64,000 nt of DNA from NCBI GenBank assembly GCA_035316325.1, contig DATHJB010000135.1, forward strand, positions 10,249 through 74,248, written 5' to 3'. Both the position numbers and the translations under genes were made by a program. The stretch is from Acidimicrobiales bacterium (GTDB taxonomy: Bacteria; Actinomycetota; Acidimicrobiia; Acidimicrobiales; VFJN01). Shown in pieces: positions 6,842-45,748 of the stretch (its first letter is position 1; each line of letters starts with the position of its first letter). The notes beneath the pieces are model-generated. The model saw only the letters and a list, made by a program, of their open reading frames with translations. It was not told the origin of the DNA and did no database searches.

Positions 6842-6905
6842 CGTACGGTCCTGCCTGTTGGGGCCCTTGGTCATCAACGCGTCAGCTACTAGCCACACGC
6901 TGTTG

Positions 6906-6930
6906 TTTCTAAGGACATTCGACAGAAATG
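6906..6930. promoter_or_regulatory. candidate TetR operator S2 upstream of the ABC substrate-binding gene
   Basis: GTTTCTAAGGACATTCGACAGAAAT, with the inverted pair TTTCT/AGAAA. It matches S1 at 14 of 16 positions over TTTCTAnnGACATTCG. It lies between the TetR stop (6841) and the SBP start (6987). Confidence 0.5.
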
Positions 6931-6986
6931 CCGCGTCCCCTACGGTCGTGGCCGCGAACTGGACGCATTGCTGGAGGAGTCGATCC

Positions 6987-9779: not shown

Positions 9780-9837
9780 CTCGTCGGATCCCCGTGCGTA
9801 GTGACGGGAGCACGTCGCGTCCCATTTGCCGAGGGCG

Positions 9838-9866
9838 TTGACGATGTAAGGCGCGCTCCTTAACCT
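9838..9866 (+). promoter_or_regulatory. candidate promoter giving a leaderless TetR mRNA
   Basis: TTGACG (9838-9843), 17-nt spacer, TAACCT (9861-9866). ATG 9875 follows 8 nt after the -10 hexamer. Confidence 0.35.
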
Positions 9867-9874
9867 TGTGGGCC

Positions 9875-10513
9875 ATGGGAGCCGGCAGCGCAGCACGTGA
9901 GGCGATGATCGATGCCGCAGAGCGGCTGGTCGCCGAAGAGGGCGTCGCCGCCTGCTCGCTGCGTGAGGTGCAGGCCCTCGCCGGGCAGCGCAACAAGTCG
10001 GCGGCCCACTACCACTTCGGCTCCCGTGACGGCCTGGTGGAGGCCATCGTCGAGACCCGCATGGGGCCCATCAACGCCGCCCGCCTGGCCCTGATCGACG
10101 AGCTCGACGCCCAGGGCCGCGGCGACGACCTGCGCGGTCTGGTCGAGGTGCTGGTCGACCCGCTCGCCGACGCCACCCTGCGCCGGCCGGGCAGCGCCTA
10201 CGCCCGCTTCCTCGCCCACGTGCTGGACGACCCGAAGACCACTGCCGCCGTCGCCCGCCACCTGCAGGCCGAGAGCATCCGGATCACCCGGCAGCGGTTG
10301 GCCGCCCAGATCGCCGACGTGCCCGACGAGCTGCGGGACGTGCGCATCGATCGGGCCATCGGGATGCTGATCATCTCGCTGGCCGCGTGGGAGGACCTGC
10401 CGGGCCCGCACGAGACGCGGGTGGCCGACCTGGTCGACGCCTGCGTCGCGGTCCTGCAGGCGCCGCTGTCGGCACGGACCCGGGCCGCGATCGAGGGGGA
10501 GGCGGCGACGTGA
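9875..10513 (+). CDS. TetR family transcriptional regulator
   Basis: Track ORF 9866..10513 (TTG). In-frame ATG at 9875. HTH MIDAAERLVAEEGVAACSLREVQALAGQRNKSAAHYHFGSRDGL. Confidence 0.8.
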   Translation: MGAGSAAREAMIDAAERLVAEEGVAACSLREVQALAGQRNKSAAHYHFGSRDGLVEAIVETRMGPINAARLALIDELDAQGRGDDLRGLVEVLVDPLADATLRRPGSAYARFLAHVLDDPKTTAAVARHLQAESIRITRQRLAAQIADVPDELRDVRIDRAIGMLIISLAAWEDLPGPHETRVADLVDACVAVLQAPLSARTRAAIEGEAAT

Positions 10514-11772: not shown

Positions 11773-11777
11773 AGGCC

Positions 11778-11872
11778 GAGTCATCTGTGGTCGTTCGACC
11801 GGGGTCGAGTCGTTCGTGGTCGGAGACCGACCACAGACGACTCGGGAGTGGCGTGGCGACCACAGGTGACTC
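11778..11872. repeat. 95-bp compound inverted repeat (four copies of a 16-mer, two forward and two reverse)
   Basis: GAGTCATCTGTGGTCG (11778-11793), GAGTCGTTCGTGGTCG (11807-11822), CGACCACAGACGACTC (11828-11843), CGACCACAGGTGACTC (11857-11872). The outer pair matches 15/16 and the inner pair 14/16. Symmetric 13-nt spacers and a 5-nt centre. Begins 6 nt after the sulfatase stop. Confidence 0.8.
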
Positions 11873-14268: not shown

Positions 14269-15199
14269 GGGGCGACCCGTCCTCGGGCATCGTAGGAGGC
14301 TCAGCGGATTGGTCCGCCTGGTCTCGTGTCGCGGTGCTGTGCTGCCGGAGGCCCCGCTGTTGGGCAGGTGTTCGGCCGCCAAGTGCCGGACTCGTAGGCT
14401 GCACGATCCCCCCATCCGCGGGGCCTGCGAGCCGGCGCATGCCCGCCAGCCAGCGGTCGTGGTCCGCGGCGCGGCGCTGCTCGAAGGCGGCGACCTCGGG
14501 GTGGGGGAGGATCAGGAAGCGCTCGTCGCGCAGGCCCTCGACCACGGCATCGGCCACGGCGTCGGGGCTGAGGATCCCCTGCACGGCCGCGGCCCGGGCG
14601 CCGCCCGACGGTGGATCGCCGTTGGCGCTGCCGATCATCGGCGTGGCGACCGCCATCGGGCACAGGCAGGACACCTTGATGCCCTGGTCGCCGTAGGTGA
14701 TCGCCAGCCACTCGGCCAGCGCCACCGCGGCGTGCTTGGTGACGGAGTAGGCGGCGTCGCCCGGCTGGCTCAGCAGCCCGGCCGCCGAGGCGGTGTTGAG
14801 CAGGTAGCCGCCGCCCCGGGCCAGCATCCTGGGCACCAGCGCCCGGGAGGCGTAGACGTGCGCCATCAGGTTGACCGACCACACCCGGCCCCAGACCTCG
14901 TCGCCGGCCTCGATGCCCTGGCCGCTGAGGATGCCGGCGTTGGAGGCGAACAGGTCGATCGGGCCCAGCTCGGCCTCGGTGCGCTCGACGACAGCGGCGA
15001 TGTCGGCCTCGACGGTGACGTCGGCCGTGTCGGCCACGCCCCGGTCGCCGATCGCCTCGGCGGTGGCCCGGGCGCCGTCGGCGTCGCGGTCGACCACCAC
15101 CACGGCCCGTGCCCCCTCGGCGGCGAAGCGGAGGCTGAGAGCCCGGCCGATGCCGCTCGCCCCACCGGTCACGACGCAGATGCGATCCGCCAGCTCCAT
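14258..15199 (-). CDS. short-chain dehydrogenase/reductase (SDR)
   Basis: Track ORF 14258..15199. [21 protein letters not shown] motifs. The last ~55 codons look non-coding by codon usage (see findings). Confidence 0.85.
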
Positions 15200-15266
15200 G
15201 CGCCCGATCGTACGCCCGTTCGTACCCGCCTCGCACGAACCCGTCGAGCCGACGGGCGGGGCGGGA

Positions 15267-16247
15267 CTAGGAGATCGCGGCCCGGATCGTCGCCTCGGCC
15301 ACGGCGCGGCGGTCGGCGCCCCACGGCAGCGGCATGAGCACCGGCACGTCGACCCCGGCGTCGACGTAGGAGCGCATCGTGGCGCTCACGGTGTCCTCGT
15401 CGCCCATCACGTCGATGGCGTCGACCATGCGGTCGCTCACCGCCGCGACGGCCCCGGCCCGATCGCGGTCGGCGAAGCGCTCCCGCACCTCGGCGACCTC
15501 GTCGCCGAAGCCGGCCCGGGTGAAGTTGGCGGCGTAGCTGTCGACCACGGCGTAGGAGAAGAGGTCACGCCGGGCCAGCTCCACGCCCTCCTCGCGGGCG
15601 CACACCCCGGCGTGGACGTAGGCGTAGATCGTGGCGTCGCCGCCCTCCCGGACCCGCTCCACCGACCACGGCACGTGCGATGCCGGCAGGTAGTTGAGCA
15701 GCACCCCGTCGGCCAGCTCGCCGGCCAGCCGCAGCATCCTGGGGTTGAGCGCCCCGACCACGATGCGGGGCTTGCGCTCACCCAGGCGCACGCCCAGCCG
15801 GAAGCCCTTGACCTGGTAGAAGTCGCCGGCGAAGTCGACCTTCTCGCCCGACAGGCACAGCCGCAGCAGAGTGACGTACTCGCGCACCTGCGACAGCGGG
15901 TTCTTGCCGTAGGGCACGCCGTGCCAGCGCTCGGTCACCACCGGCGACGAGATGCCGACACCCAGCAGGACCTCCCGCTCGGGCTGCAGCGCCTGCAGGG
16001 TCGCCCCCGCCATCGCCACCAGCATCGGGGTGCGCAGCTGCAGCGCCAGCACGCCGGTGCCCAGGTCGAGCGACGGTGCCGCCGCCCCCGCCGCCGCCAG
16101 CAGCGAGAACGCCTCGGGCCCGGTCGTCTCGGCGGTCCAGAAGCTGCGGTAGCCGCAGTCGGCTGCCAGCCGTGCGGTCTCGACCGCCAGGTCGGGACCC
16201 AGCGTCATCAGCGAAGCGAACGTCACCCCGGCGCGATCCATGCCCAT
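15267..16247 (-). CDS. LLM-class (luciferase-like) F420-dependent oxidoreductase
   Basis: C-terminal 326 aa of track ORF 15267..16469, from ATG 16247 ([13 protein letters not shown]...). [31 protein letters not shown]. Confidence 0.85.
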
Positions 16248-16287
16248 GCCGGCCGACGCTAGCTGCAGGTCATAGGCTCGCTGCCAT

Positions 16288-17013
16288 ATGGACATGACCG
16301 CGGCCGAGGGGCGCGTGCTGGGATGCCTCGTCGAGGCCCAGGTCGCCAACCCCGACGTGTACGCGGTCACGCTCGACGAGCTGCGCTTCTCCTGCAACCA
16401 GATCACCGGGCGCGAACCGGTGATGCTGCTGGACGACCGCGTGGTCGAGGACACGCTGCTGATGCTCAAGTCCCGTGGCCTGGCCCGCTTCGTGACGGCC
16501 GGTCACCGCGCCGGGCCCATCAGCTACCGCCATCGGGCCGACGAGCGCTGGCGGCTGGGCGAGCCCGAGCTGGCGGTGTTGGCGGTGCTGCTGGTGCGGG
16601 GTCCGCAGACCGTCGACCAGGTGTACCGGCTGCTCGACGAGAAGCAGCTGGCCGGCTCCCGCACCGAGGTGGAGGCGGCGCTCGACACGCTGGCGGGCCG
16701 CACGCCCCGGTCGCTGGCCACCCGGTTGGCGCCGTCGGGGCCGGGGCCCGCCCAGCCCGGTGACGTCATGTGGGCAGAGGTGCTGACCGGCCCGCCGCAG
16801 GTCGAGACGCTGTTCCCGGTGCCGCCGCGGTCCCCGGTGGCCGTCCAGCCCGGCAATGCCCCACGGCTGTCGCCCACCCTCGCCGAGGTGGCCGACCGGC
16901 TCACCAACATCGAGCGGCGCCTGGCGGGCATCGAGGCGGCCCTGCAGTCGCTGCGGGGCGCCACCGCACCGCCGGCACCCCGCACCGCCGGCCCCAGCCG
17001 CATCCACCGCTGA
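16288..17013 (+). CDS. DUF480 (YceH-like) family protein
   Basis: Track ORF. EGRVLGCLVEAQVANPDVYAVTLDELRFSCNQITGREPVM, LAVLAVLLVRGPQT and a C-terminal coiled-coil parallel E. coli YceH (from memory). Confidence 0.8.
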   Translation: MDMTAAEGRVLGCLVEAQVANPDVYAVTLDELRFSCNQITGREPVMLLDDRVVEDTLLMLKSRGLARFVTAGHRAGPISYRHRADERWRLGEPELAVLAVLLVRGPQTVDQVYRLLDEKQLAGSRTEVEAALDTLAGRTPRSLATRLAPSGPGPAQPGDVMWAEVLTGPPQVETLFPVPPRSPVAVQPGNAPRLSPTLAEVADRLTNIERRLAGIEAALQSLRGATAPPAPRTAGPSRIHR

Positions 17014-17014
17014 C

Positions 17015-17067
17015 CCGAAACCTCGACGGAGCTGGCGCCATAGCCACCACTTCTGGCGAAGTTTCGG
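17015..17067 (-). repeat. nested-palindrome repeat, copy A (reverse orientation)
   Basis: Reverse complement: CCGAAACTTCGCCAGAAGTGGTGGCTATGGCGCCAGCTCCGTCGAGGTTTCGG. Fills the 55-nt gap between convergent stops at 17013 and 17069. Confidence 0.85.
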
Positions 17068-17068
17068 C

Positions 17069-18424
17069 TCAGAGCGTGTCGTAGCGCTCCAGGGCGTAGG
17101 GGACCGGCTCGAGCAGCGGCGTGGTGGGCTCGACCACCACCAGGATCTCCAACTTCTCGGTGCACGCCCGCTGCGGGCCGAACACCACCGCCGCCTGGTC
17201 GCCGGTGCGGGCGATGTCCTCGCCCACGACGGCCCCGCCGGCCAGCACCACCAGCCGCAGCGGCGCGGCGTCGGGCGACGTCAGCGTCAGGCTCACCTCG
17301 ACGGCGCGCGGGCACGGCTCGCCCCCGGCGCCGATCGGCAGGGGGTAGGTGTCGCGGCTGGTGGACGGTTCGAGCATGGTGTCGAGCCGGTCGACGAGCG
17401 CGGTCTCGCCCTCGACGCCGGGCGCCGGAGGCGCCGACGTGCCGGGCGCGGCGTCGTCGTCGTCGCCGACGACCACCGACGGGCCGTCATCCGGGGGAGC
17501 GGCACCCGAGTCGCCGTCGCCATCCGACCCGGCCACCACGAACGCCCCGCCGGCGATCGCCAGGCACCCCACGGCCACGCCGACCGCCACGCCCGGGCGC
17601 ACCGACGCCGGCGACGCCGGCCGCGGCCACCGACCGCCCCGCGCCGGCTCGTACGCCGCGAGGAGGGCCGCGGCAGTGGGCCGGCGTTCCGGGCGCGGGT
17701 CGAGCATCGACGCCAGCCGCATGCGGAGCGCCTTGGGCAGCGACTTCGGCACCTTCTCGACCCTGCCGCTGGCGGCGCGCACCATCAGCAGGCTGGGGTC
17801 GCCGGTGCCGAACGGCCCGCCGGCCGTGGCCGCGAACAGCAGCGTCGCCCCCAGGGCGAAGATGTCGCTGGCCGGCGTGAGCGGCTCGTCCCGGGCCTGC
17901 TCGGGCGGCATGAAGCCGGGGGTGCCCACCACCATGCCGGCCACGGTGAGGCCGGCCGTCTGGTCCCAGGTGTGGGCCAGGCCGAAGTCGGCGAGGTACG
18001 GCTCGGCCTGGTCGTCGTAGAGCACGTTGGCGGGCTTGACGTCGCGGTGGATGATGCCGGCGGCGTGCGCCTCGGCCAGGGCGCCCAGCAGGCGCTGTGC
18101 CAGCCGGTCGATCTCGTCGGCGGGTGCCGGACCGTGCTGGGCGACGCGGTCGGCCAGGTTGCCGCCCGCCAGGTAGGGCATCACCAGGACGACGTCGTCG
18201 CCCTCCTCCACCACCTCGAGCAGCCGCACCACGTTGGGGTGGTGAAGGCGGCGTAGCACCTCCGCTTCGCGGAGTAGCCGCTGGCGCGAGCGCAGCACCT
18301 CGCTGGCCGAACCGGTCAGCGTGAGGCGCTTGAGCGCGACCTGGTTCCCGGCCTGGTCGCGCGCCAGATCGACCACACCCATGCCACCACGGCCCAATCG
18401 GGCGACCGGCTCGTAACCCACCAA
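17069..18424 (-). CDS. serine/threonine protein kinase with one TM helix and an extracytoplasmic C-terminal domain
   Basis: Track ORF, TTG start. GRGGMGVV, ALKRL, HRDVKPANV, DFGLA, GTPGFMPPEQ. Confidence 0.9.
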   Translation of the reverse strand: MVGYEPVARLGRGGMGVVDLARDQAGNQVALKRLTLTGSASEVLRSRQRLLREAEVLRRLHHPNVVRLLEVVEEGDDVVLVMPYLAGGNLADRVAQHGPAPADEIDRLAQRLLGALAEAHAAGIIHRDVKPANVLYDDQAEPYLADFGLAHTWDQTAGLTVAGMVVGTPGFMPPEQARDEPLTPASDIFALGATLLFAATAGGPFGTGDPSLLMVRAASGRVEKVPKSLPKALRMRLASMLDPRPERRPTAAALLAAYEPARGGRWPRPASPASVRPGVAVGVAVGCLAIAGGAFVVAGSDGDGDSGAAPPDDGPSVVVGDDDDAAPGTSAPPAPGVEGETALVDRLDTMLEPSTSRDTYPLPIGAGGEPCPRAVEVSLTLTSPDAAPLRLVVLAGGAVVGEDIARTGDQAAVVFGPQRACTEKLEILVVVEPTTPLLEPVPYALERYDTL

Positions 18425-18521
18425 CGACGCAGGCTAGGCGCGGGCGTCGGGCCGACCGGAGCGCGGGCGCCGCGACGACATTCGGGCCGCTCGACAACGG
18501 TCTGTCGTCCTGGCGTCACAG

Positions 18522-18734
18522 TTGACCGGTATGGTGGGCGGCGTGACCGAGTCCCGTGCGCATGACGAGGCGATCCACGAAGCCCTTGCCATCATCGACA
18601 AGGGCCTTGGCGACCTGCTCCATCGTGAGCTGGTCTCGACCAACGAGGTAGCGGACCTGCTCCTCGACGTGCGAACCCTGCTGTCCACTCCCAATCCTGA
18701 CCGCGACGAGAGCGACGTCGTCGTCGCCAGCTGA
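18522..18734 (+). CDS. small hypothetical protein (70 aa)
   Basis: Track ORF (TTG; an internal ATG follows 3 codons later). Sits in an otherwise empty 450-nt gap. Moderate G/C third-position bias. No family recognised. Confidence 0.35.
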   Translation: MTGMVGGVTESRAHDEAIHEALAIIDKGLGDLLHRELVSTNEVADLLLDVRTLLSTPNPDRDESDVVVAS

Positions 18735-18878
18735 GCGGTCCCTGCGTCGAGCCCGGTCGCCTCGGCCGAGCTCCAGTAGACGGCGTTCTCGTTCAAGGGC
18801 GAGCGAGCTCTGGATCGGTGTAGAAACCGGTCCCGTGCCATCGGTGGATCGACCGTGACGCTCCGCGTGCCCTGCGGG

Positions 18879-20630
18879 CTACCCGCAGAGCTCCAGGCGG
18901 GCCTCTGCCGGGATGGGCGGCACCCGGAGCTGCGTCCGGCTCACTGAGCCCACGACGTTGCGCAGGAAGCGGCCGGGCGTGAGCGGTGCGTCGACCGCGT
19001 CGACGAGATCGACCAGGTCGCCACAGGCCAGAGCGGCACGGGCGTCGTCGACCACGGGCTCGTCGACCGAGGGCTGGGCGAACCGGGCGACCAGCCACTC
19101 CCAGCCGAGGATCTTCTCGTGCCCCGGCCGGCTGGGTGGCCCGGCCTCCATGTGCGCCCCCAGCGGCTCGGCCAGGCTGAGCTGGTCGATCACATGGGTC
19201 CCCAGGAACTTGTAGCCGACCAGCCCGATGGACCCACCCACCAGCAGCGGCCGGTCGCTCCGGGCGTAGCGGCCCGAGCCGCCCAGGTCCACCAGCTGGC
19301 CCTCCCGCGGCAGCTCGCCCAGCTGCACGAGCCCCGACTCGACGTAGGTGGCGTAGTCGTCGTAGGTGACGGGACGCTCGTCGCCGGCCAGCAGCATCCA
19401 CACGAGTCGCTCGTTGGCGATGCCGTCGACGGAGAGGTCGCCGTCGACGGCGGCCGTGGTCGGGTCGTCGGTGATGTCCACCGGGTCCCAACGGCGGAAG
19501 CCGCCGATGAGGACCAGCGTCGTTGCCAGCGCCCCGACGCCGGCCCAGGCCACCAGCCGGCGCCGTGACGGCAGCGGGAACGCCGCCACCGGGCAGACGA
19601 GGGCGAAGGTGGCGGGCAGGAACAGGCGGGCGTACATGAAGTCGCCGCCCACCTTCACCACGTAGATGCCGTTGATCAGGGCCGCCACCACCGGGGCCGC
19701 CGCGACGATCGCGTGGCGCCGTGTCGGCCCGGCCGTCGGCGCCTCCAGCAGGATCAGGACCGCCAGCAGACCCAGCGGGATCAGCAGCAGGGTGGAGCCG
19801 ACGTACACGTCGAGGTAGGTCCAACCCCGCGACCACAGGCTGCGGCCCGCCTCCTTGGCCAGCGCCGTGTTCGGCACCAGGAGCCCGTAGTAGCCCATGC
19901 GGAACACCTGGTAGAGGAGGGGGGCGGCCAGTCCCAGGCCGAGGGCCCGGAGGTTGGCGCGGCGCGAGAGGCGTGATGTGGCCACCAGCGCCACCGCGAA
20001 GGCGACGCTGAACACCACGAAGTCCGGCCGGATCAGTGGGCCCAGGCCGATCAGCCCCGCGGCCCATCCCGAAATCTCGACAGAAGTGGTCGCTATGGCG
20101 CCATCCCTGTCGAGATTTCGGTGGGGGTCGAGGCGGCGGGCGACGGCCCACCAGCAGGCACCGATCCAGGCGAAGCTCAGGCCGGTCTCCAGGCCGGAGC
20201 TGGCGAAGTCCCACATGGGTGGCAGGGCGACCAGGAGCAGGGCGCCCAGCGGCAGGGGAGCGTCGCGGCCGATGCTGGCCCACCAGCGGCGGGCGCCTGC
20301 CGCGGCGAAGGCGATGCCCGCCAGGGTCAGGGCGATGCCCGCCAGCACCGCCGTCCAGGCAGGGTCGAGGAACCACAGCAGGACGCGGGCGACGACCAGT
20401 ATGGCGATCCACAGCGGGCTGGTGCCGGCCTCCACCCGTTCGCCGGCGTTGAACACCGGGCCGTCGCCGTGGAGGACGTTCCAGACGATGCGGAGGTTGA
20501 TGAAGCCGTCGTCGGACACCCAGCGGTGGTGCCACGCCAGCACGGCGAAGCACACCACCGGAAGCCACACCGCGACGACGGTGCCAGCCGTGACGCGACC
20601 GGCCCACGACCCACGGCGTGTCCTCGACAT
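18879..20630 (-). CDS. polytopic membrane glycosyltransferase, GT-C fold (ArnT/arabinofuranosyltransferase-like)
   Basis: Track ORF. First-loop motif RWVSDDGFINLRIVWNVLHGDGPVFNAGERVEAGTSPLW, followed by many TM helices and a soluble C-terminal domain. Carries an in-frame palindromic repeat at 20069-20127. Confidence 0.7.
   Translation of the reverse strand: MSRTRRGSWAGRVTAGTVVAVWLPVVCFAVLAWHHRWVSDDGFINLRIVWNVLHGDGPVFNAGERVEAGTSPLWIAILVVARVLLWFLDPAWTAVLAGIALTLAGIAFAAAGARRWWASIGRDAPLPLGALLLVALPPMWDFASSGLETGLSFAWIGACWWAVARRLDPHRNLDRDGAIATTSVEISGWAAGLIGLGPLIRPDFVVFSVAFAVALVATSRLSRRANLRALGLGLAAPLLYQVFRMGYYGLLVPNTALAKEAGRSLWSRGWTYLDVYVGSTLLLIPLGLLAVLILLEAPTAGPTRRHAIVAAAPVVAALINGIYVVKVGGDFMYARLFLPATFALVCPVAAFPLPSRRRLVAWAGVGALATTLVLIGGFRRWDPVDITDDPTTAAVDGDLSVDGIANERLVWMLLAGDERPVTYDDYATYVESGLVQLGELPREGQLVDLGGSGRYARSDRPLLVGGSIGLVGYKFLGTHVIDQLSLAEPLGAHMEAGPPSRPGHEKILGWEWLVARFAQPSVDEPVVDDARAALACGDLVDLVDAVDAPLTPGRFLRNVVGSVSRTQLRVPPIPAEARLELCG
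20069..20127 (+). repeat. nested-palindrome repeat, copy B, inside the GT-C coding sequence
   Basis: CCGAAATCTCGACAG-AAGTGGTCGCT-ATGGCGCCAT-CC-CTGTCGAGATTTCGG-TGGGGG. The 15-bp outer arms pair perfectly and the central 10-bp palindrome is perfect. Confidence 0.85.
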
Positions 20631-20697
20631 CGGAGGGAGACCGTAGTGCCGGTCACCCTCCGCAACGAGTCGAACCCGGACGGGCCCCGGGAGGGGT

Positions 20698-21294
20698 TCA
20701 GCGCTTCAGTGAGGTGTGCTTGAACTCGTTGAGCTCGGGGGCGTCGACCAGCAGGTCGACGACGCGCTGGATGCTGCGGCGGGCGTGGGCGGCGTCGTCG
20801 CCGGGACGGTCCATCAGCCGCACGAACACCGCGGCGTCGCCCTGCAGGAAGGTGGGCACGCCCCACACCTCGAAGTCGTCGACGGCGGCGGTGTGCTCCG
20901 CGCGGATGCGGGCCAGGGCGGTCCCCTCGGCGATCTCCGCGAACACGGCGTCGGCGTCGATGCCCTGGTCGGTGAGGACCCGGCGGACGTCGGGCTCCTC
21001 GAACTTGCGACCCTCGTCGTGGCGGAGGGCGAACAGCGCCAGGTGCACGTCGAAGAACCGGTCGGGCCAGCGGTCGCGCACCACGACACCCGCCTGCAGC
21101 GCCACGAGGCCGCTGTCGTCCTCCGGCCGCTCCCAGATGTCGGTCTCACCCTCGGCGACGTGGACCTGGCCGAGCGAGAACGGCACGAACCGCACGTTCC
21201 AGTCGGCGCCGTCCTTCAGGGCTTTCACCAGGTGTTCGTGGGCATTGCGGGCGAACGGGCAGCGGTAGTCCCAGGTCACGGCGAAGTCGGTCAT
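20698..21294 (-). CDS. DsbA-like thioredoxin-fold protein
   Basis: Track ORF. N-terminal WDYRCPFARNAHE (single Cys in a CPFA context) and C-terminal VWGVPTF, typical of DsbA/FrnE-like proteins. Confidence 0.7.
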   Translation of the reverse strand: MTDFAVTWDYRCPFARNAHEHLVKALKDGADWNVRFVPFSLGQVHVAEGETDIWERPEDDSGLVALQAGVVVRDRWPDRFFDVHLALFALRHDEGRKFEEPDVRRVLTDQGIDADAVFAEIAEGTALARIRAEHTAAVDDFEVWGVPTFLQGDAAVFVRLMDRPGDDAAHARRSIQRVVDLLVDAPELNEFKHTSLKR

Positions 21295-21324
21295 CGAGTG
21301 GGTCCAACCGATCGAACGGCTCGA

Positions 21325-21894
21325 CTATTTCCGTGCCGGCCACACCCGCCGGGCCAACAGCGCCAGGCCCGCGCCGAGCGCGGCGCCGGCGACGACGTCG
21401 GACGCGTGGTGCACCTTCACGTACACACGGCTGGTGGCGACGGTGGCGGCGACCACCGCGTAGAGCGGCCACAGCGGGTCGTTCTGGGCGAGCACCCCGA
21501 AGGCGGTGACCGCCGACGAGGCGTGGCCCGACGGGAAGCTCGACGTGCGGGGCTGGCGCAGCTTCAGCGGGCGGTCCTGCTCCCACGTCGGCCGGCGCCG
21601 GCCTACCAGCGACTTCACCACGCCGTTCACGAACACCGACTCCAGGCCGATGATGGTGGCCACCCGCACGGCGTCCTCGGCCCGCCGGTCGGGCGCCAGC
21701 GCCCGCGCCGTGCCGATCAGGTGCCAGATCAGGCTGAAGTCGCCGAGCTCCGACGCCGCGTACATCACCCGGTCGAGCGTGGGGTTGCCCCGCCACTGTT
21801 GCACCCAGGTGTCGACGGCGTCGTCGAACCGGGTGATCGCCTGCCGGGCCCGCTCCGCCACCGCTCCCTCGGGCGGGGGTAGCTCCGTCATCAC
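21325..21894 (-). CDS. PAP2 family phosphatase
   Basis: Track ORF. KxxxxxxRP, PSGH, SRxxxxxHxxxD motifs: KSLVGRRRP, SFPSGHAS, SRVYVKVHHASDV. Confidence 0.85.
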   Translation of the reverse strand: MMTELPPPEGAVAERARQAITRFDDAVDTWVQQWRGNPTLDRVMYAASELGDFSLIWHLIGTARALAPDRRAEDAVRVATIIGLESVFVNGVVKSLVGRRRPTWEQDRPLKLRQPRTSSFPSGHASSAVTAFGVLAQNDPLWPLYAVVAATVATSRVYVKVHHASDVVAGAALGAGLALLARRVWPARK

Positions 21895-22757
21895 CCCGCC
21901 GCCGCCATGAGCTCCCTCGCCGCCTTCTCCGCCTTCTCGGCCTCGCGGGCCTCACGTGCCTCGCGGGCGATCTCCAGCGCGACGTCGGGGTCGCCGCCGT
22001 AGGACGGGCAGTACTCCTTGAAGGCGCAGTAGTCGCAGAGGCGGGACGGGCGGGGGCGGAAGTCCTCGCGCTCGCAGGCCCGCTCGACCGCCTGCCACAC
22101 GGCCGACAGGGAGCGGCGGGTGCCGCGGGTGGTCTGGTCGGTGGGCGTGGTGATGATGGCCACGGGTTGGCGGACGTAGAGCAGCTGCACCCGCGCCGGC
22201 CGGCGCCCCAGCAGCTCCTCGCACAGCAGCGAGTAGATGTGGACGCCCGAGAGCCGTTTGCGCTCGAAGTTCTCCGACGGCACCGAGCCGGTCTTGTAGT
22301 CGGTGACCACCAGCTCGCCGTCGGCGTCGAGCTCCAGCCGGTCGATGATGCCGCGCAGGCGCACGCCGTCGATCTCGACGTCCATCATCAGCTCGAGCCC
22401 GATCGCCTCGATGCGCTGCGGGTCCTCCAGCTGGAAGTAGCGCCTCACGAGTTCCGCGGCGTCGGCCTGGAACTCGGCGGCCGCCGCCTCGTCGAGCCCG
22501 AGCTCGGCGTAGTCGGGATCGTCGGCCATGTCGGACGCGGCCTCGCCCAACAGGCCCAAGGCGGCGTCGACCGTGCGTGAGGCCGCCGGCAGGACGTGCA
22601 GCCGCTCCAACGTCGTGTGCACCAGCGTGCCCTTCGTGGACCACGGGGCCGGCGGCTCGGGCAGCCGGTCGATGGCGGAGAAGCGGAACGCGAGCGCGCA
22701 GTCGGTGAAGCTCGACACCTTCGACGGGCTGAGGCTCACCGGTACCTGAAAGGCCAT
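21891..22757 (-). CDS. PD-(D/E)XK nuclease, RecB/Cas4-like with a 4-Cys cluster
   Basis: C-terminal 288 aa of track ORF 21891..23009, from ATG 22757 (MAFQVPVSLSPSKV...). Nuclease core GIIDRLELDADGELVVTDYKTG. Cys at FTDC plus CDYCAFKEYC. Confidence 0.8.
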   Translation of the reverse strand: MAFQVPVSLSPSKVSSFTDCALAFRFSAIDRLPEPPAPWSTKGTLVHTTLERLHVLPAASRTVDAALGLLGEAASDMADDPDYAELGLDEAAAAEFQADAAELVRRYFQLEDPQRIEAIGLELMMDVEIDGVRLRGIIDRLELDADGELVVTDYKTGSVPSENFERKRLSGVHIYSLLCEELLGRRPARVQLLYVRQPVAIITTPTDQTTRGTRRSLSAVWQAVERACEREDFRPRPSRLCDYCAFKEYCPSYGGDPDVALEIAREAREAREAEKAEKAARELMAAAG

Positions 22758-22813
22758 GCAGCGAGCGTATGCGCGCCCTATGACAGTGAAGGGGACCGCG
22801 GAGCGTGGGTTGA

Positions 22814-23188
22814 CTAGCTCAGCGTGTCGGGCACCTCGACGGGGGTCGGCGCGGCGAGTGCCTCGACCGAACCGGCGGCGCCGCTGCCGTCGTCGTTCCT
22901 CGGGCGCGGCGGAGGCGGTGGCGGCAATGGCCGGTCGAGGTTGGTGCGCGGCTCGGGGGTGTCGACGTAGGCGTCGAGCGCCTCCGTCGCGTCCTCGAGG
23001 CTCTGCCACAGCGTGACCGCCGGCTTCCCTTCGATGTTGATCGAGATCGCCGAACCGTCGGCGAACCTCAGCCCCCAGGCGATGGGGCGCCAGCCCAGTG
23101 CGGTGCCGTCTTCATCCCAAAGGTCCTGGTAGAAAGCCAACAACCGCGGCACGTGGAAATTGGGCGTGGTGCCGGAGTCCTGACCCAT
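22814..23188 (-). CDS. hypothetical protein with a Pro-rich C-terminal tail
   Basis: Track ORF 22814..23302, start taken at ATG 23188 (MGQDSGTTPNFHV...). No family recognised. The N-terminal codons are A/T-richer than the window norm. Confidence 0.5.
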   Translation of the reverse strand: MGQDSGTTPNFHVPRLLAFYQDLWDEDGTALGWRPIAWGLRFADGSAISINIEGKPAVTLWQSLEDATEALDAYVDTPEPRTNLDRPLPPPPPPRPRNDDGSGAAGSVEALAAPTPVEVPDTLS

Positions 23189-23329
23189 CCGTGTTGCCCC
23201 TCTTCTGCCCTTGTTGTTCTGGAGTTCCAGCTGGACGGCGGCGACACGACACCTCACTGCACGACATAGCGTGACGCGTTCCGCACGCTCAGAGACTTGC
23301 ACAGGATGGTTGCTCGTACAAGAGAGAGA

Positions 23330-24211
23330 TTACGAAAAAGCGACGAAATCCGGGGTTATTGAGGCCGCAATTGTCACCGGGTCCTCCATCGGACCGAAGT
23401 GGGTCAGCTCCGGGAAGCGCCGCAGCGAGCCGTTCCCGAGCGACGAGCTGACCAGCGCGGCCATCTGCGCCGGCGGCGCGCCGTCACCGCTGGCGGCCAC
23501 CGTCGTCGGGCAGGCGACCTGCCCCAGGCCCGCGAAGGCGCCGTTGTCGAGGCCCGCCTCGAAGATGCGGGCCTCCGTCTCCGGCGCGCACTTGAGCTCC
23601 ACGCTGCCGTCGGGTCGCGAGCGGAAGCCGTGGTCGACGTAGGCGTGCAGCGCCTCGGACGTGAAGCGGTTGAGCGGTGGCTTGGCGTGGTAATTGGCGA
23701 ACGCCGCGTCACGCGAGGGAAACACGGCACGCCGGCGCCGCGCCGACTCCGCCAGCACGTTGCCCGGAAGGACCCGGCCCTCGGGGCGGGGGAAGACGAT
23801 CGGCTCGTAGCACCACAGCGCCGCCCAGGTGCCCGGGTGGGCCTGCTCGGCCAGCACCAGGGCGGCGCCGCCCATCGAGTGGCCGACGCCCAGCAGCGGC
23901 TCGTCGCCACCACCGATCAGCTCGACGACCGCCAGCACGTCGTCCGCCATGCCGCGCCACGACAGGTCGTCGGAGGCCGGCAGCGTGCTGTCGCCGTGGC
24001 CCCGGAAGTCGAGCGCCCAGCAGTGGAAGCGGTCGGCGAGGTGCCAGCCCACCGGCGACCACGTCAGCCCGTGGAAGCCCGTGGGATGGCAGAGCAGCAG
24101 CGGCGGGCCGTCGCCACCGAGGTCGTGCACGGCCAGGGACACGCCGTCGCTGGAGGCGACGCGGTGGGCGGCGGGCTCGCTCGGTGGGGTCGGCGGGGTC
24201 ACGGGGCTCAT
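23330..24211 (-). CDS. alpha/beta hydrolase
   Basis: Track ORF 23330..24388, start at ATG 24211 (MSPVTPPTPP...). LLLCHPTGFHG, nucleophile elbow GVGHSMGGA. Confidence 0.85.
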   Translation of the reverse strand: MSPVTPPTPPSEPAAHRVASSDGVSLAVHDLGGDGPPLLLCHPTGFHGLTWSPVGWHLADRFHCWALDFRGHGDSTLPASDDLSWRGMADDVLAVVELIGGGDEPLLGVGHSMGGAALVLAEQAHPGTWAALWCYEPIVFPRPEGRVLPGNVLAESARRRRAVFPSRDAAFANYHAKPPLNRFTSEALHAYVDHGFRSRPDGSVELKCAPETEARIFEAGLDNGAFAGLGQVACPTTVAASGDGAPPAQMAALVSSSLGNGSLRRFPELTHFGPMEDPVTIAASITPDFVAFS

Positions 24212-24299
24212 GCTGGCATCGAGAGATCGCGCCTTCCCAGTCCGACCTGGGCCTACCTCGCGGATAGCGTGCGGATCGGTGCAGCGCTCATCCCCACCC

Positions 24300-24914
24300 A
24301 TGACGGCGTTCGCTCCGGCGGCGCCACCGCTCGACGGGCGCAGTGCGCGCGCCCTGCGGACGCGTGAGGCGATCGTCGACGCGTGCATCGGTCTGGTCGA
24401 GGAGGGTCAGCTGCGGCCCACCGCCCCACAGGTGGCGGAGCGGGCGGGAGTGTCGGTGCGCTCGGTGTTCCAGCACTTCGCCGACCTGCCGTCGCTGCAC
24501 ATCGCCGTGAGCGAGCGGATCGTCGCCCGGCTGGCGGTGCTGCTCCACCCGATCGACCCGTCGCGGCCGCTCGACGACCGCATCGCGGCTTTCGTCCGCC
24601 ACCGCGGCGGCCTGCTGGAGGCGGTCACCCCGTTCCGCCGGGCCGCCAACGTCCACGGGCCCTTCGCCCCCGAGATCGCCGAGGTGAACCGGGCCGCCAC
24701 CGACTACCTGCGCGACGAGGTGGCCCGCGCCTTCCGGCCCGAGCTCGATCTCGTCCCGGCCGCCGACCGCCGCGAGGTGCTGGAGGCGCTCGCCACCACG
24801 CTGTCGTGGTCGGCGTGGGACGCGCTGCGCAGCGACGGCGGCTGCACCGTGCCCCAGGCGACGGCGGTCATGCGGCGCATCGTGCGGGCCGTGCTGGCAT
24901 CGGTCAACGACTGA
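24300..24914 (+). CDS. TetR family transcriptional regulator
   Basis: C-terminal 204 aa of track ORF 23829..24914, from ATG 24300. TREAIVDACIGLVEEGQLRPTAPQVAERAGVSVRSVFQHF. Confidence 0.8.
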   Translation: MTAFAPAAPPLDGRSARALRTREAIVDACIGLVEEGQLRPTAPQVAERAGVSVRSVFQHFADLPSLHIAVSERIVARLAVLLHPIDPSRPLDDRIAAFVRHRGGLLEAVTPFRRAANVHGPFAPEIAEVNRAATDYLRDEVARAFRPELDLVPAADRREVLEALATTLSWSAWDALRSDGGCTVPQATAVMRRIVRAVLASVND

Positions 24915-25742
24915 GCCGCTGGAAGGCGCGGACGGCGAGCGGCAACGTGAGCACGGTGATGAGCACCGGCCACAGGACGGCCATGGGCAGCGCGTTGTCG
25001 GCGATCCAGCCGGAGCCCTCCACGCCGGGGTTGCCGAACAGGTCGCGGGTGGCGGTGACCGTGGCCGACAGCGGGTTCCACTCGGCGATCGTGCCCATCC
25101 AGCTGGGCATGAGGTCGGGTGCCACGAAGGCGCTCGACAGCATCGTGACGGGGTAGAGGAGCCCGAACATCGAGTTGGCGGCCTCGGCGCTCTTGGCCCG
25201 CAGGCCCAGGAAGATGCCGATCCACAGGAACGCCTGGCGCAGGAGCAGCAGCAGCCCGACCGCGGCCAGCGCCTCGACGACCGTGCCGTGCCAGCGCCAG
25301 CCGATCGCCAGACCGCACACGATCATGAGCGCCAGGCTCGCGGCGGAGTACGCCATGCCGGCGATGCAGCGTCCGACGACCACGGCCGACGGCGCCATCG
25401 GCATCGACCGGAAGCGGTCGGTGACGCCCTTCTCGGTGTCGGCCTGCACCGCGGCGAGCGTCTCGCCGATGCCGAACGCCATCGTCTGAGCGAACATCCC
25501 CGGCATGAGGAACTCCCGGTAGCTGCCGCCGCCGGGCACGGACATGGCGCTCCCGAAGACGTAGGCGAACAGCAGCACGAACATCACCGGGAACATGAGG
25601 CCCCAGACGATCATCTGTGGCTGGCGCACCCACTGGGCCATGTCGCGCTGGGCGACGAGCCAGCCGTCCCGCAGCGCCCAGCGCAGCCGGGCGGTCGGCG
25701 GGAGGGCGACGGTGGTGCTCACAGGGGCGCTCACGGCGGTGC

Positions 25743-25746
<4 letters not shown>
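24904..25746 (-). CDS. ABC-2 type exporter permease (DrrB-like)
   Basis: C-terminal 280 aa of track ORF 24904..26208, from ATG 25746 (MSTAVSAPV...). Six predicted TM helices. ATGA overlap with the ATPase gene. Confidence 0.85.
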
Positions 25747-26744
<998 letters not shown>

Positions 26745-26830
26745 CCGGTCCCCTTACTCAATACAGTGTACGGAGTGATTGGCCAAGTTAGCGTACGGCG
26801 TAAAGAGTTACAAACCAGGAGCCGCGAGAG

Positions 26831-27625
26831 ATGACCGAGTACGCCGGCCGTGGCGACCCGCGGCGCACGCTGAACCTGCTGTGGGGGCGCGCCGATGCGC
26901 CGGCCCGAGGCCCGAAGCAGGGGTTGACCGTGGCGGAGATCGTGGCGGCCGCCATCGAGGTCGCCGACGCCGAGGGCCTGGGCGCGGTGTCGATGCGCAG
27001 GGTGGGCGAGCGCCTCGGCAAGAGCGCCATGGGCCTCTACACCTACGTGCCCAGCAAGGCCGAGCTGTTGGACCTCATGCTCGACGCCGTCCTCGGCGAG
27101 CTGCCCACCGACTACCCGCTCGACGAGGGCTGGCGCGCCGCCGTCGAGCGCTGCGCCCGTGACGGGTGGGCGTTCTACGAGCTCCACCCCTGGGTGCTGC
27201 AGGTCTCGGGTGCCCGCGCCGCCCTCGGTCCCCACGAGTTCGACTCCTACGAGACCCAGCTACGGCTGTTCGCAGGCCGCGGGCTCACCGGCGTCGAGAT
27301 GACGCGCGCCGTCGGGGCGCTCGCCAGCTTCGTGCGAGGTGCCGCCAAGGCCGTGTCCGACGCCCGCACCGCCGAGCAGGCGACCGGCCTCAGCGACGAC
27401 GACTGGTGGAACGCCCGCGCCCCGCTCCTGGAGGAGCTGGCGGACGAGACCTGGGCCGAGCGCTATCCCACCGTCACCCAGCTGTCGGCCGAGCAGGCCT
27501 TCGACCAGGTCGACCGTCCCGACGACACGACCCCTTATCTCGTGCAGGACGCGCTCGACACCTTCGAGTTCGGGCTGCAGCGCCTGCTCGACGGCCTCGA
27601 GACCTACGTCAACCGAGGCTCTTGA
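26831..27625 (+). CDS. TetR family regulator with a TetR-C (tetracycline-repressor-like) domain
   Basis: Track ORF. LTVAEIVAAAIEVADAEGLGAVSMRRVGERLGKSAMGLYTYVPSK. Divergent from the ABC exporter genes. Confidence 0.85.
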   Translation: MTEYAGRGDPRRTLNLLWGRADAPARGPKQGLTVAEIVAAAIEVADAEGLGAVSMRRVGERLGKSAMGLYTYVPSKAELLDLMLDAVLGELPTDYPLDEGWRAAVERCARDGWAFYELHPWVLQVSGARAALGPHEFDSYETQLRLFAGRGLTGVEMTRAVGALASFVRGAAKAVSDARTAEQATGLSDDDWWNARAPLLEELADETWAERYPTVTQLSAEQAFDQVDRPDDTTPYLVQDALDTFEFGLQRLLDGLETYVNRGS

Positions 27626-28502
27626 GGGCCAGCATCATCTCTTCGTTGAGGCTGGCGGGTACCACGTAGCCGTCCTCGGTGCGGATGTCGTCGAAGCGGT
27701 CGCGCACGGTCTCGGCCGACAGGTCGGCGTCGAAGATCCCCGGCGTCACGCCGACGAACACCCGGGCCACGCGGCCACCGCCGACGGAGTAGACCTCGCC
27801 GGTCACCGCGCACTCCTCGTGCGCCAGGAAGGTGACCACGGGTGTGACCGACTCGGGCAGCAGCTTGTCGGCCAGCGGGCCGAGGATGTCCTCGGTCATG
27901 CGGGTCTTGGCGACGGGCGCGATGGCGTTGGCCTTGATGTTGTACTTGGCGCCCTCGATGGCGAGCACCCGCGTGAGCCCGACGAGGCCCATCTTGGCGG
28001 CGCCGTAGTTGGTCTGGCCGAAGTTGCCGAAGATCCCGGCGCCCGACGAGGTGTTCACGATGCGGCCGAAGCCCTGGTTCCGCATGTGCTCCCAGGCCGG
28101 CTGGGTGACGTAGAAGGCGCCCTTGAGGTGCACGTCGAGCACCGGTTCGAGCTGCTCGGCCGTCATGTTCTTGAACGACGTGTCGCGCAGGATCCCTGCG
28201 TTGTTGATGATGATGTCGACCTTGTCGAAGGCGTCGAGGGCCGACTGCACGATGGCCTTGCCGCCCTCGGGGGTGGCCACCGAGTCGTAGTTGGCGACGG
28301 CCTCGCCGCCGGCGGCCTTGATCTCGTCGACGACCGCCTGCGCCGCGGTGGTGCCGCTGCCCGTGCCGTCCGAGGAGCCGCCGAGGTCGTTCACGACGAC
28401 CAACGCGCCCCGCCGTGCCAGGTCCAGTGCGTGCGACCGGCCGAGGCCACCACCCGCGCCCGTGATGATCGCAACCTTGCCGTCGAATCCCAGATCTGCC
28501 AT
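27609..28502 (-). CDS. SDR, 3-hydroxyacyl-CoA dehydrogenase-like (MFE-2 N-terminal type)
   Basis: C-terminal 297 aa of track ORF 27609..28988, from ATG 28502. KVAIITGAGGGLGRSHAL, VVVNDLGG, NNAGILRD, YGAAKMG. Confidence 0.9.
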   Translation of the reverse strand: MADLGFDGKVAIITGAGGGLGRSHALDLARRGALVVVNDLGGSSDGTGSGTTAAQAVVDEIKAAGGEAVANYDSVATPEGGKAIVQSALDAFDKVDIIINNAGILRDTSFKNMTAEQLEPVLDVHLKGAFYVTQPAWEHMRNQGFGRIVNTSSGAGIFGNFGQTNYGAAKMGLVGLTRVLAIEGAKYNIKANAIAPVAKTRMTEDILGPLADKLLPESVTPVVTFLAHEECAVTGEVYSVGGGRVARVFVGVTPGIFDADLSAETVRDRFDDIRTEDGYVVPASLNEEMMLALKSLG

Positions 28503-28566
28503 GGACGGGAGCGTAGAGCGACCTTCCGAGGCGGTCCGAATCAGGTCGTCGACGTCGACCGAACTC

Positions 28567-28583
28567 AGCGAAGTAGCTTCGCT
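28567..28583. promoter_or_regulatory. perfect 7-3-7 palindrome in the divergent SDR / hypothetical intergenic region
   Basis: AGCGAAG-TAG-CTTCGCT, between starts at 28502 (-) and 28612 (+). Confidence 0.35.
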
Positions 28584-28611
28584 ACGTTTGGTAGTCAGGG
28601 AGGGCGGACCT

Positions 28612-29715
28612 GTGATCCACATGGACCCGGCGGTGGTCGGCGACTGGCGACGGGGCGGCGCGCGGAACGCGCTGTGCCTCGAGTTGGACGACCCCGCGGC
28701 TGGCTGGCCTGCGCTGTGCGACGTCCTCGACGAGGTGCCGGCCGGCTGGTCGGAGGTCGTCGTGGCGCCCGACGGGCTGCTGTTCGGGGGCGTCACCGAC
28801 GTCGATCCCGCGCCGGCGCTCGCCGAGGTGGTGGCCCGGCTGGGGGAGCGGGGCGTGGCGTCCGGGCGGCTGACCGTCGACCGCCACGCCGACGACGCCC
28901 AGCCCGGGGCCCTGCTCGACCTGGCCGAGACGACGTCGTGGGTGGCCGCCTGGCTGGTGCCGCTGATGGTGCCGGGCCTCAGCTTCACCTACCGGACGCT
29001 GCGGGAGTGGCGCATCCGGCGCTTCCCGCCGGCGCGGCTGACCGACGTGGTGGCCGATCTGGTGGCGGGGTCGCCCGTCGAGGTGGCGCGGGTCGGCTGG
29101 TCCGGCGGTGCGTTCGAGGTGCCGGCCGCCGATCTGCCCGCGTACGCCCGGCGTTGGACGGAGCACGGCACCACCACCACGAGCGCACTGGCCGAGACGC
29201 TGCCCGAGGCGGCCGTGCTGGTGACGACCGTGCGACGCGGCACGGAGCTGGTGGGCGTCGGTCACGCCGGCGTCGGCCTCCTCGACGACCGGCCGCGGGC
29301 CGAGACGGCGCTCGAGGAGCTCACCGAGCTGATCGTGGGGCTGGCCGACGTGCTGGCGTACGCCGTGGTCGGCGTGCACGAGACGGGGCGCGAGGCGGCG
29401 CTGGGCACGCCGTTCCGGGAGACCGAGCCGGCGACCGCCCGGGCCCGCAGCCGTGGCCTGAGCCTGGCGGCGCTCGACCAGTGGGTGCTCGACGCCGCCC
29501 CGGTCCAGCTGCTCAGCACCCACCACCGGGTGAACCCCGGCGATGACGTGACGGAGGAACCCGTCGCCGCCGGCCGCCGCCTGGTCCGCATCGGCACCCC
29601 GACGGACTGGTTCTCGGGCCCGACCGCTCGCTCCCAGGTCCGCAACCGCGGCCGCCAGGCCCTCTCCGCCTGCCTCCCACCCCCGAAGACCCCGATGCCC
29701 GCCCCACTCCTGTGA
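28612..29715 (+). CDS. hypothetical protein
   Basis: Track ORF 28291..29715. GTG 28612 is preceded by GGGAGGG, with an in-frame ATG at 28621. G/C-rich third positions. No family recognised. Confidence 0.55.
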   Translation: MIHMDPAVVGDWRRGGARNALCLELDDPAAGWPALCDVLDEVPAGWSEVVVAPDGLLFGGVTDVDPAPALAEVVARLGERGVASGRLTVDRHADDAQPGALLDLAETTSWVAAWLVPLMVPGLSFTYRTLREWRIRRFPPARLTDVVADLVAGSPVEVARVGWSGGAFEVPAADLPAYARRWTEHGTTTTSALAETLPEAAVLVTTVRRGTELVGVGHAGVGLLDDRPRAETALEELTELIVGLADVLAYAVVGVHETGREAALGTPFRETEPATARARSRGLSLAALDQWVLDAAPVQLLSTHHRVNPGDDVTEEPVAAGRRLVRIGTPTDWFSGPTARSQVRNRGRQALSACLPPPKTPMPAPLL

Positions 29716-29727
29716 CAGCCCGACCCA

Positions 29728-29787
29728 CCGAAATCTCGACAGAGATGGTGGCTATAGCGCCATGTCTGTCGAGGTTTCGGTGGGGGG
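29728..29787 (+). repeat. nested-palindrome repeat, copy C
   Basis: CCGAAATCTCGACAGAGATGGTGGCTATAGCGCCATGTCTGTCGAGGTTTCGGTGGGGGG. Lies in the 72-nt gap between convergent stops at 29715 and 29788. Confidence 0.85.
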
Positions 29788-30471: not shown

Positions 30472-30494
30472 GCCCGTACGTCGGGCTTTTCGCG

Positions 30495-42603: not shown

Positions 42604-42630
42604 TTCGCATCGCTAATTAGCTTAGCGAAA
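42603..42630. promoter_or_regulatory. candidate MarR autoregulatory operator
   Basis: TTTCGC-ATC-GCTAATTAGC-TTA-GCGAAA: a perfect 10-bp central palindrome flanked by inverted TTTCGC/GCGAAA. It abuts the MarR start codon. Confidence 0.5.
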
Positions 42631-45688: not shown

Positions 45689-45748
45689 CCGAAACTTCGA
45701 CAGAAACGGCGGCTATGGCGCCATCTGTGTCGAGATTTCGGTGGGCGG
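45689..45748 (+). repeat. nested-palindrome repeat, copy D
   Basis: CCGAAACTTCGACAGAAACGGCGGCTATGGCGCCATCTGTGTCGAGATTTCGGTGGGCGG. Lies in the 80-nt gap between convergent stops at 45679 and 45760. Confidence 0.85.

Follow-up and report, generated by a model that had tools for sequence, protein, structure and literature searches.

A lineage-specific palindromic repeat in frame within an AftB-like arabinofuranosyltransferase gene of an uncultured Acidimicrobiales population

The host gene and its palindromic repeat

The DNA considered here is a stretch of 64,000 nucleotides (nt) from an Acidimicrobiales bacterium (contig DATHJB010000135.1), hereafter called the window. One copy of a small dispersed palindromic repeat, copy B, lies in frame inside a gene of this stretch that encodes a membrane glycosyltransferase resembling AftB, an arabinofuranosyltransferase. 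How this copy came to lie within codons, and whether the gene still works, are the questions discussed below. The features of the locus are as follows.

18879..20630, minus strand: AftB-like GT-C arabinofuranosyltransferase gene (583 amino acids), host of copy B, assigned from profile, structure and synteny matches
20069..20121, no strand assigned: copy B, 53-nt palindromic repeat core with arms at 20069-20083 and 20107-20121 (nhmmer E 3e-17)
20070..20120, minus strand: the 17 element codons as translated, RNLDRDGAIATTSVEIS, residues 171-187, from the codon table; copies in CofD, CobN and ThiO genes have the same frame and peptide type
20055..20126, minus strand: derived segment of 24 codons (72 nt), PHRNLDRDGAIATTSVEISGWAAG, replacing the 78-nt ancestral loop RVDRGDRSNAGAAEPLGPDRPLAVPV of the empty allele, from protein and DNA alignments with loci L096, L097, L001 and L003

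The host protein matches NCBIfam NF041481 (terminal beta-(1->2)-arabinofuranosyltransferase) at 2e-80, with a score of 270 that lies below the equivalog cut-off of 1050, and the gene is therefore called AftB-like rather than a proven equivalog. The Pfam domain AftB_C is also matched, as is the cryo-EM structure of AftB (PDB 9dlf, at 5e-66). An AlphaFold2 model built with 25 homologues (mean predicted local distance difference test, pLDDT, 85; predicted TM-score, pTM, 0.89) superposes on 9dlf with a TM-score of 0.83. The host protein fits the description of AftB as a GT-C fold with a periplasmic DD motif, 11 transmembrane (TM) helices and a C-terminal AftB_C domain, the active-site pair D40-D41 being invariant in the homologue alignment. 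The gene order PAP2-DsbA-AftB-70aa-Pkinase-DUF480 is kept in L001, L003, L096 and L097. A 64,183-bp JGI metagenome contig encodes an identical protein, and close relatives are annotated as Acidimicrobiales metagenome-assembled genomes (MAGs). The window and L001 have a single AftB_C gene at this locus, and neither the window nor 855 kb from the same population yielded a second AftB paralogue. L003, a relative with 75 % identity, has two tandem AftB_C paralogues at 6760-10278 (567 and 575 amino acids, 53 % identical to each other).

On the plus strand, positions 20069-20121 read CCGAAATCTCGACAG-(23 nt)-CTGTCGAGATTTCGG. As a first, sequence-only reading of this DNA had stated, the 15-bp arms (20069-20083 and 20107-20121) are fully complementary. 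The 23-nt centre contributes further inner pairs, and an imperfect extension of the hairpin spans 20057-20133. Folded as a single strand, copy B reaches -49.1 kcal/mol as RNA (z -7.15) and -28.5 kcal/mol as DNA (z -7.4). The same reading was right in placing the repeat in frame: the 583-residue open reading frame passes through it without a stop as ...DPHRNLDRDGAIATTSVEISGW... (residues 168-189). It was also right about codon usage. GC content at third codon positions (GC3) is 92.8 % for the host gene, whereas only 12 of the 20 codons of residues 171-190 end in G or C (60 %), the eight others being CGA, AAT, GAT, ATA, ACT, TCT, ATT and GGA.

Empty and filled alleles

Within the 90 % cluster of P0001, the proteins P0123 (ENA contig L097) and P0121 (NCBI HMG43202.1) carry an identical element, and L097 is 99.8 % identical to the window. 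The filled allele is thus the same in three independent assemblies from different projects: the JGI window, ENA L097 and the NCBI MAG protein HMG43202.1. A further member, P0122 (Ga0193743_1011892, locus L096), has no element. Outside the loop, the L096 and window sequences are 98.3 % identical, with 29 differences over 1666 nt. The interval between ...CGCCGCCTCGAC and CTGATCGG... measures 78 nt in L096, where it codes for RVDRGDRSNAGAAEPLGPDRPLAVPV, and 72 nt in the window, where it codes for PHRNLDRDGAIATTSVEISGWAAG. The second half of the L096 loop is homologous to outgroup loops, as seen from AEPLGPDRPLAVPV compared with SEPLPLDRPFWVPV in L003. At this site, P0002 (80 % identity; L001 and L002) and P0003 (75 %; L003), both syntenic orthologues, have 14 codons against 24 in the window.

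These alignments show that the filled state is derived, and recent since the L096 allele lacks the element in spite of its 98.3 % identity. They also show a replacement rather than a clean insertion, 72 nt standing in place of 78 ancestral nt. The proposal of a recent insertion thus holds for age and polarity and fails for mode. Similarly, the insertion of about 20 residues that was expected in an alignment of orthologues is not what is seen: 24 codons take the place of 26 codons of an unrelated loop, a change of -6 nt (-2 residues) with respect to the empty allele and of +10 residues with respect to P0002 and P0003.

The length of the inserted unit can be read from another copy of the window.

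17014..17068, no strand assigned: copy A, clean 55-nt insert (G + core + G) between the convergent genes for DUF480 (plus strand, stop 17011-17013) and a Ser/Thr kinase (minus strand, stop 17069-17071), whose stops abut in L001

At the empty site of L001, the kinase and DUF480 stop codons abut (TGA|TCA), and there is no target-site duplication at copy A. A clean insert of 55 nt is not a multiple of three, so that no in-frame copy can be a simple insertion. The idea that the frame is kept by an element of about 60 nt, or 20 codons, must consequently be abandoned. Copy A is present in both L096 and L097 and is thus older than copy B. In the window lineage, relative to L096 (4660-4714), copy A has undergone two changes that disrupt the arms and do not compensate each other (GACAG->GCCAG and CTGTC->CCGTC), from which its hairpin seems not to be strongly maintained.

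Selection on the host gene and position of the loop

The reading frame is intact on both sides of copy B, with coding-type GC3. The window and L096 differ by 28 synonymous and 2 non-synonymous changes, giving a ratio of non-synonymous to synonymous rates (dN/dS) of 0.028; where a difference can be assigned to the window lineage, the counts are 7 synonymous and 1 non-synonymous. This pattern indicates that the rest of the host gene is under purifying selection. Taken with the agreement of the three assemblies, it argues that the gene is neither split nor pseudogenised at copy B, in line with the first reading.

In the AlphaFold2 model, residues 171-190 have a pLDDT of about 60, against more than 85 in the flanking helices, and are located between helix 148-167 and helices 189-218. 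The segment falls in a loop, as had been anticipated, and this loop is variable among homologues, with lengths from 0 to about 35 residues. In AftB, the periplasmic loop PL2 connects TM3 and TM4 (PMC12041299), so that the next loop, TM4-TM5 (CL2), which houses copy B, is predicted to be cytoplasmic. According to the model, copy B would be on the side of the membrane opposite to the periplasmic DD active site. From its sequence, the filled gene looks functional, and we infer that the host protein is made and active.

The repeat family

The family was delineated with a two-arm pattern search, followed by an nhmmer profile search of the window and the matching loci (855 kb in total). Within the window, arm matches with at most three mismatches number 10 against 1.64 expected, a value reached by none of 100 shuffles (0/100). 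They assemble into four full copies: A (17015-17067), B (20069-20121), C (29728-29780) and D (45689-45741). In JGI metagenomes, the two-arm pattern matches 91 stretches, nearly all of them in Ga0193742 and some in Ga0193743 and Ga0272482. The profile search returned 97 places, corresponding to 90 unique sites in the 855 kb of population sequence. The view of copy B as one copy of a dispersed palindromic element that is non-coding as a rule is thereby upheld, about 95 % of the copies being extragenic. Searched with the same pattern, 185,579 species-representative genomes gave a single match, in a Planctomycetota MAG, which is an unrelated chance match; the family itself is absent from them. No copy was found in about 55 kb of the syntenic relatives L001, L002 and L003 (75-80 % protein identity). 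The element family is therefore a set of lineage-specific, small palindromic dispersed repeats of an uncultured Acidimicrobiales population.

The family core has 53 nt, C-CGAAAYYTCGACAG...CTGTCGARRTTTCG-G, with arms of 21-25 bp around a centre of about 11 nt. This centre is asymmetric (GGCGCCATAGCGACC or its complement), hence every copy has an orientation. Information content falls sharply beyond the core, the left flank being merely C-rich and the right flank G-rich. Direct-repeat matches at the borders of the 90 copies (offsets 0-6, k = 2-4) equal the shuffled expectation, and target-site duplications are thus not detected. No compensatory covariation is seen at the variable YY/RR arm positions, which pair in 52 of 90 cases against about 48 expected. 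Rfam 15 gives no match at gathering score across the whole window. A regular-expression search for the HUH...WQxRF..[DE]...YxxNP motifs of RAYT-like genes, in six frames, found none in 882 kb, that is by motif in a partial genome.

A divergent relative of the repeat occurs at window positions 2768-2826 (CCGAAACTGCGACAG...CTGTCGCAACTTCGAG), with TGCGAC instead of CTCGAC. Heads such as CCGAAAYTGCG... are also observed at about L021 5671 and about L030 2343, and repeats of this type may form a second subfamily.

In-frame copies in other enzymes

All 97 places were tested for open frames with coding-type composition on both sides, and the genes were assigned with Pfam. In-frame copies were found in three more genes, encoding CofD (L052, with L037 as a second strain), CobN (L065, an open frame of 1,355 codons) and a ThiO-type glycine oxidase (L074). 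These copies have the same frame and loop orientation as copy B, and their peptides are DRNLDTDGALATSSVEVS, DRNFDTDGVLATSSVEVS, ARNFDTDGALATTSVEVS and VRNLDTSGAMATSSVEVS. With AftB, the common peptide is RN[LF]D..GA.AT.SVE[VI]S. Five of the six combinations of frame and orientation are open in most copies, yet one only is used, which suggests a selective filter on the peptide; the four independent events constitute a small sample.

In the case of ThiO, the nearest orthologue without the element is P0125 (L098, 85 % identity); 19 residues of L074 correspond to 7 in this protein, which amounts to a net gain of 36 nt. The filled form of ThiO is likewise recorded in NCBI, as HMG44504.1. For CofD, comparison with the FbiA structure 6uvx places the copy in a hairpin loop, which it lengthens by about 20 residues net. 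The CofD copy is flanked by in-frame short tandem duplications (DRDRDR and VSDEVSDE), and flanking tandem repeats offer one possible way of restoring the frame after a 55-nt insertion.

In copy B as in the CofD, CobN and ThiO copies, the translated element starts with N-x-D-x-D-G. This start bears a superficial likeness to calcium-binding loops of the DxDxDG type; the acidic residue lies away from the canonical position 12, and the likeness probably follows from the palindrome.

The possibility that the element inserts at targets that are already hairpins or palindromes was also considered. It was dropped, as flank complementarity over the 90 copies is at background except for the conserved C and G beside the core. 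Each of the three empty sites inspected has a short palindrome close to its junction or at it (TGA|TCA; TCGAC-CGC-GTCGA; CGACG|CGTGG; L098 1021-1041 compared with L074, and the L096 loop). At the ThiO site, the replaced host DNA resembles the element ends (CCGAcgcgTgGAC compared with CCGAaaccTcGAC). With as few as three sites, neither the junction palindromes nor the resemblance to the ends can be distinguished from chance in a genome of 72 % GC.

Extragenic copies and gene ends

The genes around the copies were called from the very strong GC3 periodicity. On this map, convergent genes flank 53 copies, tandem genes about 21 and divergent genes one at most; in most cases 0-28 nt separate the stop codon from the core. 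The two other copies of the window are of the first kind.

29724..29784, no strand assigned: copy C, 25-nt arms 92 % complementary, between convergent genes (stops 29715 and 29788), from arm and profile search
45689..45741, no strand assigned: copy D, between convergent genes (stops 45679 and 45760), from arm and profile search

Over positions 15000-31000, which include copies A, B and C, no terminator-like call was obtained; the hairpin is present but no T-run follows it. With respect to transcription, orientation shows a weak bias (11 same, 6 opposite). The extragenic copies would probably be near-neutral passengers at gene ends rather than canonical terminators.

Some 14 genes have a reading frame that continues into the repeat and is closed by the TAG of its centre, the element supplying their stop codon and their last 8-9 residues (E[IT]ST[EQ]xA[PTL]*). 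They are found at L006, L010, L017, L023, L025, L029/L058, L035, L049, L053, L069, L071, L079 and L092; at L035, a single copy holds the ends of both convergent genes.

Short tandem repeats (units of 4-9 nt, 3-8 copies) occur within 36 nt of the elements in 32 of 194 flanks, compared with 77 of 3000 random windows, a six-fold excess. Examples are L016 1739-1770 and L052 2363-2386, as well as L023, L029, L060, L062 and L075; the element-terminal TCGG is often part of such repeats. These flanking repeats suggest slippage at the base of the hairpin.

The window has other palindromes that look unrelated to the family: GGGAAATTGCGTTCG...CGAACGCAATTTGCC at 56510-56562 (24-nt arms), CCGAGTCATCTGTGGTCGTTC.../...GACCGACCACAGACGACTCGG at 11776-11845 (21-nt arms, 90 %), a perfect 15-nt pair TGAGAGCCAGCTTCG/CGAAGCTGGCTCTCA at 59303-59340, and the AT-rich TTTCGCATCGCTAATTAGC at 42603-42630.

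Comparison with known small repeats

The sequence-only reading had drawn a parallel with the Rickettsia palindromic elements (RPE). According to the review PMC10969869, which summarises Ogata et al. 2000, RPEs insert in frame into unrelated genes and are translated. In both systems, dispersed palindromic repeats have a subset in frame within unrelated housekeeping genes; this subset is translated as a conserved peptide at positions compatible with the fold, such as loops, and the copies are absent from orthologues. On the other hand, RPEs, as described in that review, measure about 100-150 bp, reside in obligate intracellular AT-rich alpha-proteobacteria, and are nearly half intragenic in some families. 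The present elements measure 53-55 nt, occur in Acidimicrobiales of a free-living type with 72 % GC, and are in frame inside genes for about 5 % only. In addition, the unit is not a multiple of three, and the in-frame copies would be products of insertion plus deletion. The parallel thus stands for behaviour, with in-frame copies in three more genes, but not for membership: what is seen is RPE-like behaviour in a new family, set apart from RPEs by size, host and intragenic proportion rather than by sequence comparison.

Repetitive extragenic palindromic (REP) sequences and their paired form, REPINs, are close in other respects. Like REPs, the elements are present in high copy number, extragenic, at the 3' ends of genes or between convergent genes, and devoid of target-site duplications (PMC2817692, PMC3116915). 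Like REPINs, they have two inverted arms of about 21-25 nt around a short spacer. In both systems, the repeats are lineage-specific and appear to be vertically inherited. REPs, however, have a GT(A/G)G head (PMC2817692), whereas the consensus here starts with C-CGAAAYYTCGAC, has flanks below 0.5 bit and shows no GTAG or GTGG. The REP/RAYT system is further characterised by a single-copy RAYT gene (an IS200/IS605-like Y1 transposase) flanked by inverted REPs in the same genome (PMC2817692, PMC3116915). It was originally described as proteobacterial, and REPs are very rarely translated. Architecture is thus most like that of REPINs, but the head motif differs and any association with RAYT would be hypothetical.

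Bacterial MITEs (transposable elements of the miniature inverted-repeat type), such as ERIC, Correia/NEMIS, BOX and cyanobacterial repeats, are also small, non-autonomous and palindromic, and can fuse frames to host genes or supply stops (PMC10969869). Classical MITEs, derived from a parent insertion sequence with a DDE transposase, have terminal inverted repeats and direct target-site duplications. Such an identity is ruled out here by the absence of duplications at the 90 copies and at the copy A site. Nor was a parent insertion sequence seen. An ISL3-family transposase gene is present at L097 1-871, about 9 kb from aftB in the same organism.

Mycobacterial interspersed repetitive units (MIRUs) are direct tandem units of 40-100 bp in the intergenic regions of operons. 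As with the present family, these are small actinobacterial repeats tied to gene ends, with flanking stop codons in or next to the repeat. The difference is that MIRUs do not form hairpins and are not inserted within enzyme loops.

Origin and fate of copy B

The reading that we favour, with a probability of about 0.8, is that a lineage-specific repeat imprecisely replaced a variable cytoplasmic loop of the AftB-like protein, that the frame was kept and that the element is translated. The repeats are usually found a few bases past a stop codon, for the most part between convergent genes, and there they would probably be near-neutral. In one sub-lineage, a copy would have landed in the codons of the TM4-TM5 loop of the AftB-like gene. 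The event would have been imprecise, the element together with some 19 nt of other sequence taking the place of the ancestral loop. As 78 nt were exchanged for 72 nt, the frame survived and the element would be translated as RNLDRDGAIATTSVEIS. A templated replacement in one step, or an insertion followed by a deletion, are both possible routes. Two reasons may explain why the allele persisted. Firstly, the loop is variable in length and sequence and would face away from the periplasmic active site. Secondly, the frame used encodes a hydrophilic peptide free of stops. Copies in other frames or in structured regions would be removed by selection.

Several observations weigh against this reading. 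Of the 72 nt, about 19 cannot be traced to any source, and a search of 882 kb gave no donor whose flanks match those of copy B. The unit length of 55 nt comes from one clean pair of empty and filled sites, copy A and L001. Neither a RAYT-like motif (882 kb) nor a target-site duplication nor covariation in the flanks was found, and no transposase could be linked to the element. Whether the substitutions behind the low dN/dS came before or after the element cannot be told. Finally, only one W is left of the DRPWWxPV segment that close orthologues share immediately ahead of TM5, so that function could be impaired.

A more ambitious model, which we regard as unlikely, is that the family spreads into genes by templated patch replacement, and that one frame of the hairpin has become a reusable surface-loop module of 17 residues, RN[LF]D[TR]DGA[ILM]AT[ST]SVE[VI]S. 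Host DNA with short similarity to the element ends would be overwritten via template switching guided by microhomology, or via gene conversion. If this were true, the family would correspond to the RPE system in a free-living, high-GC organism, and filled and empty alleles would still segregate in natural populations.

The loss of DRPWWxPV brings to mind another possibility, namely that the gene in its filled form was inactivated not long ago. The element would have destroyed a loop or motif that the protein requires, or the hairpin, very stable at -49 kcal/mol, would block transcription or translation; the intact frame would be a matter of luck (roughly 1/3) and decay would not yet be visible. 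The event is indeed recent (1.7 % divergence from the empty allele), and a tandem AftB paralogue, as in relatives such as L003, could make one copy dispensable. Such a paralogue was, however, not found in the window or in the 855 kb of the same population. The retained W keeps its spacing to LIGLGP, the allele is shared by three assemblies from different projects, and both the dN/dS of 0.028 and the 7 to 1 ratio of window-lineage differences speak of constraint. Moreover, three other housekeeping enzymes tolerate the same peptide, all in the same one of five open frames, which argues for selection on the product. Inactivation is consequently held to be quite improbable.

It may also be imagined that the hairpin of copy B has acquired a role as a cis-acting signal for aftB, at the level of RNA or DNA (an attenuator, a pause, an RNase site or a protein-binding site), the peptide being incidental. 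REP-like hairpins at the 3' ends of genes stabilise or terminate transcripts in other bacteria, and the present family combines extreme hairpin stability with a concentration at such ends. However, there is no U-tract, no terminator-like call and no Rfam match; variable arm positions pair without covariation (52/90, about 48 expected), orientation has no marked bias relative to transcription (11 to 6), and the empty allele and all orthologues manage without a hairpin. A regulatory role of this kind is very hard to credit.

Lastly, descent of the repeat family from a spreading coding peptide module, which conservation of the peptide across four proteins might evoke, or an assembly artefact, is effectively refuted by codon usage foreign to the genome (60 % GC3 against 93 %), by the extragenic context of about 95 % of the copies, by conservation at the DNA level, palindrome included, and by a sister allele and orthologues without the element, while three independent assemblies agree base for base.

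Significance

The in-frame invasion of enzymes by selfish DNA of palindromic type has been considered chiefly in Rickettsia. The favoured reading, loop replacement by a translated repeat, places it in a distant phylum, and bears on the question whether such invasion is a general route to new protein loops. The case is a tractable one: the foreign segment stands out by a strong contrast in codon bias, the event can be dated and delimited with an almost identical empty allele, and several of the independent host enzymes have homologous structures already solved (AftB, FbiA/CofD and ThiO). The frame would be rescued by accompanying deletions or duplications rather than by the length of the element, and such copies can be mis-annotated as authentic loop sequence.

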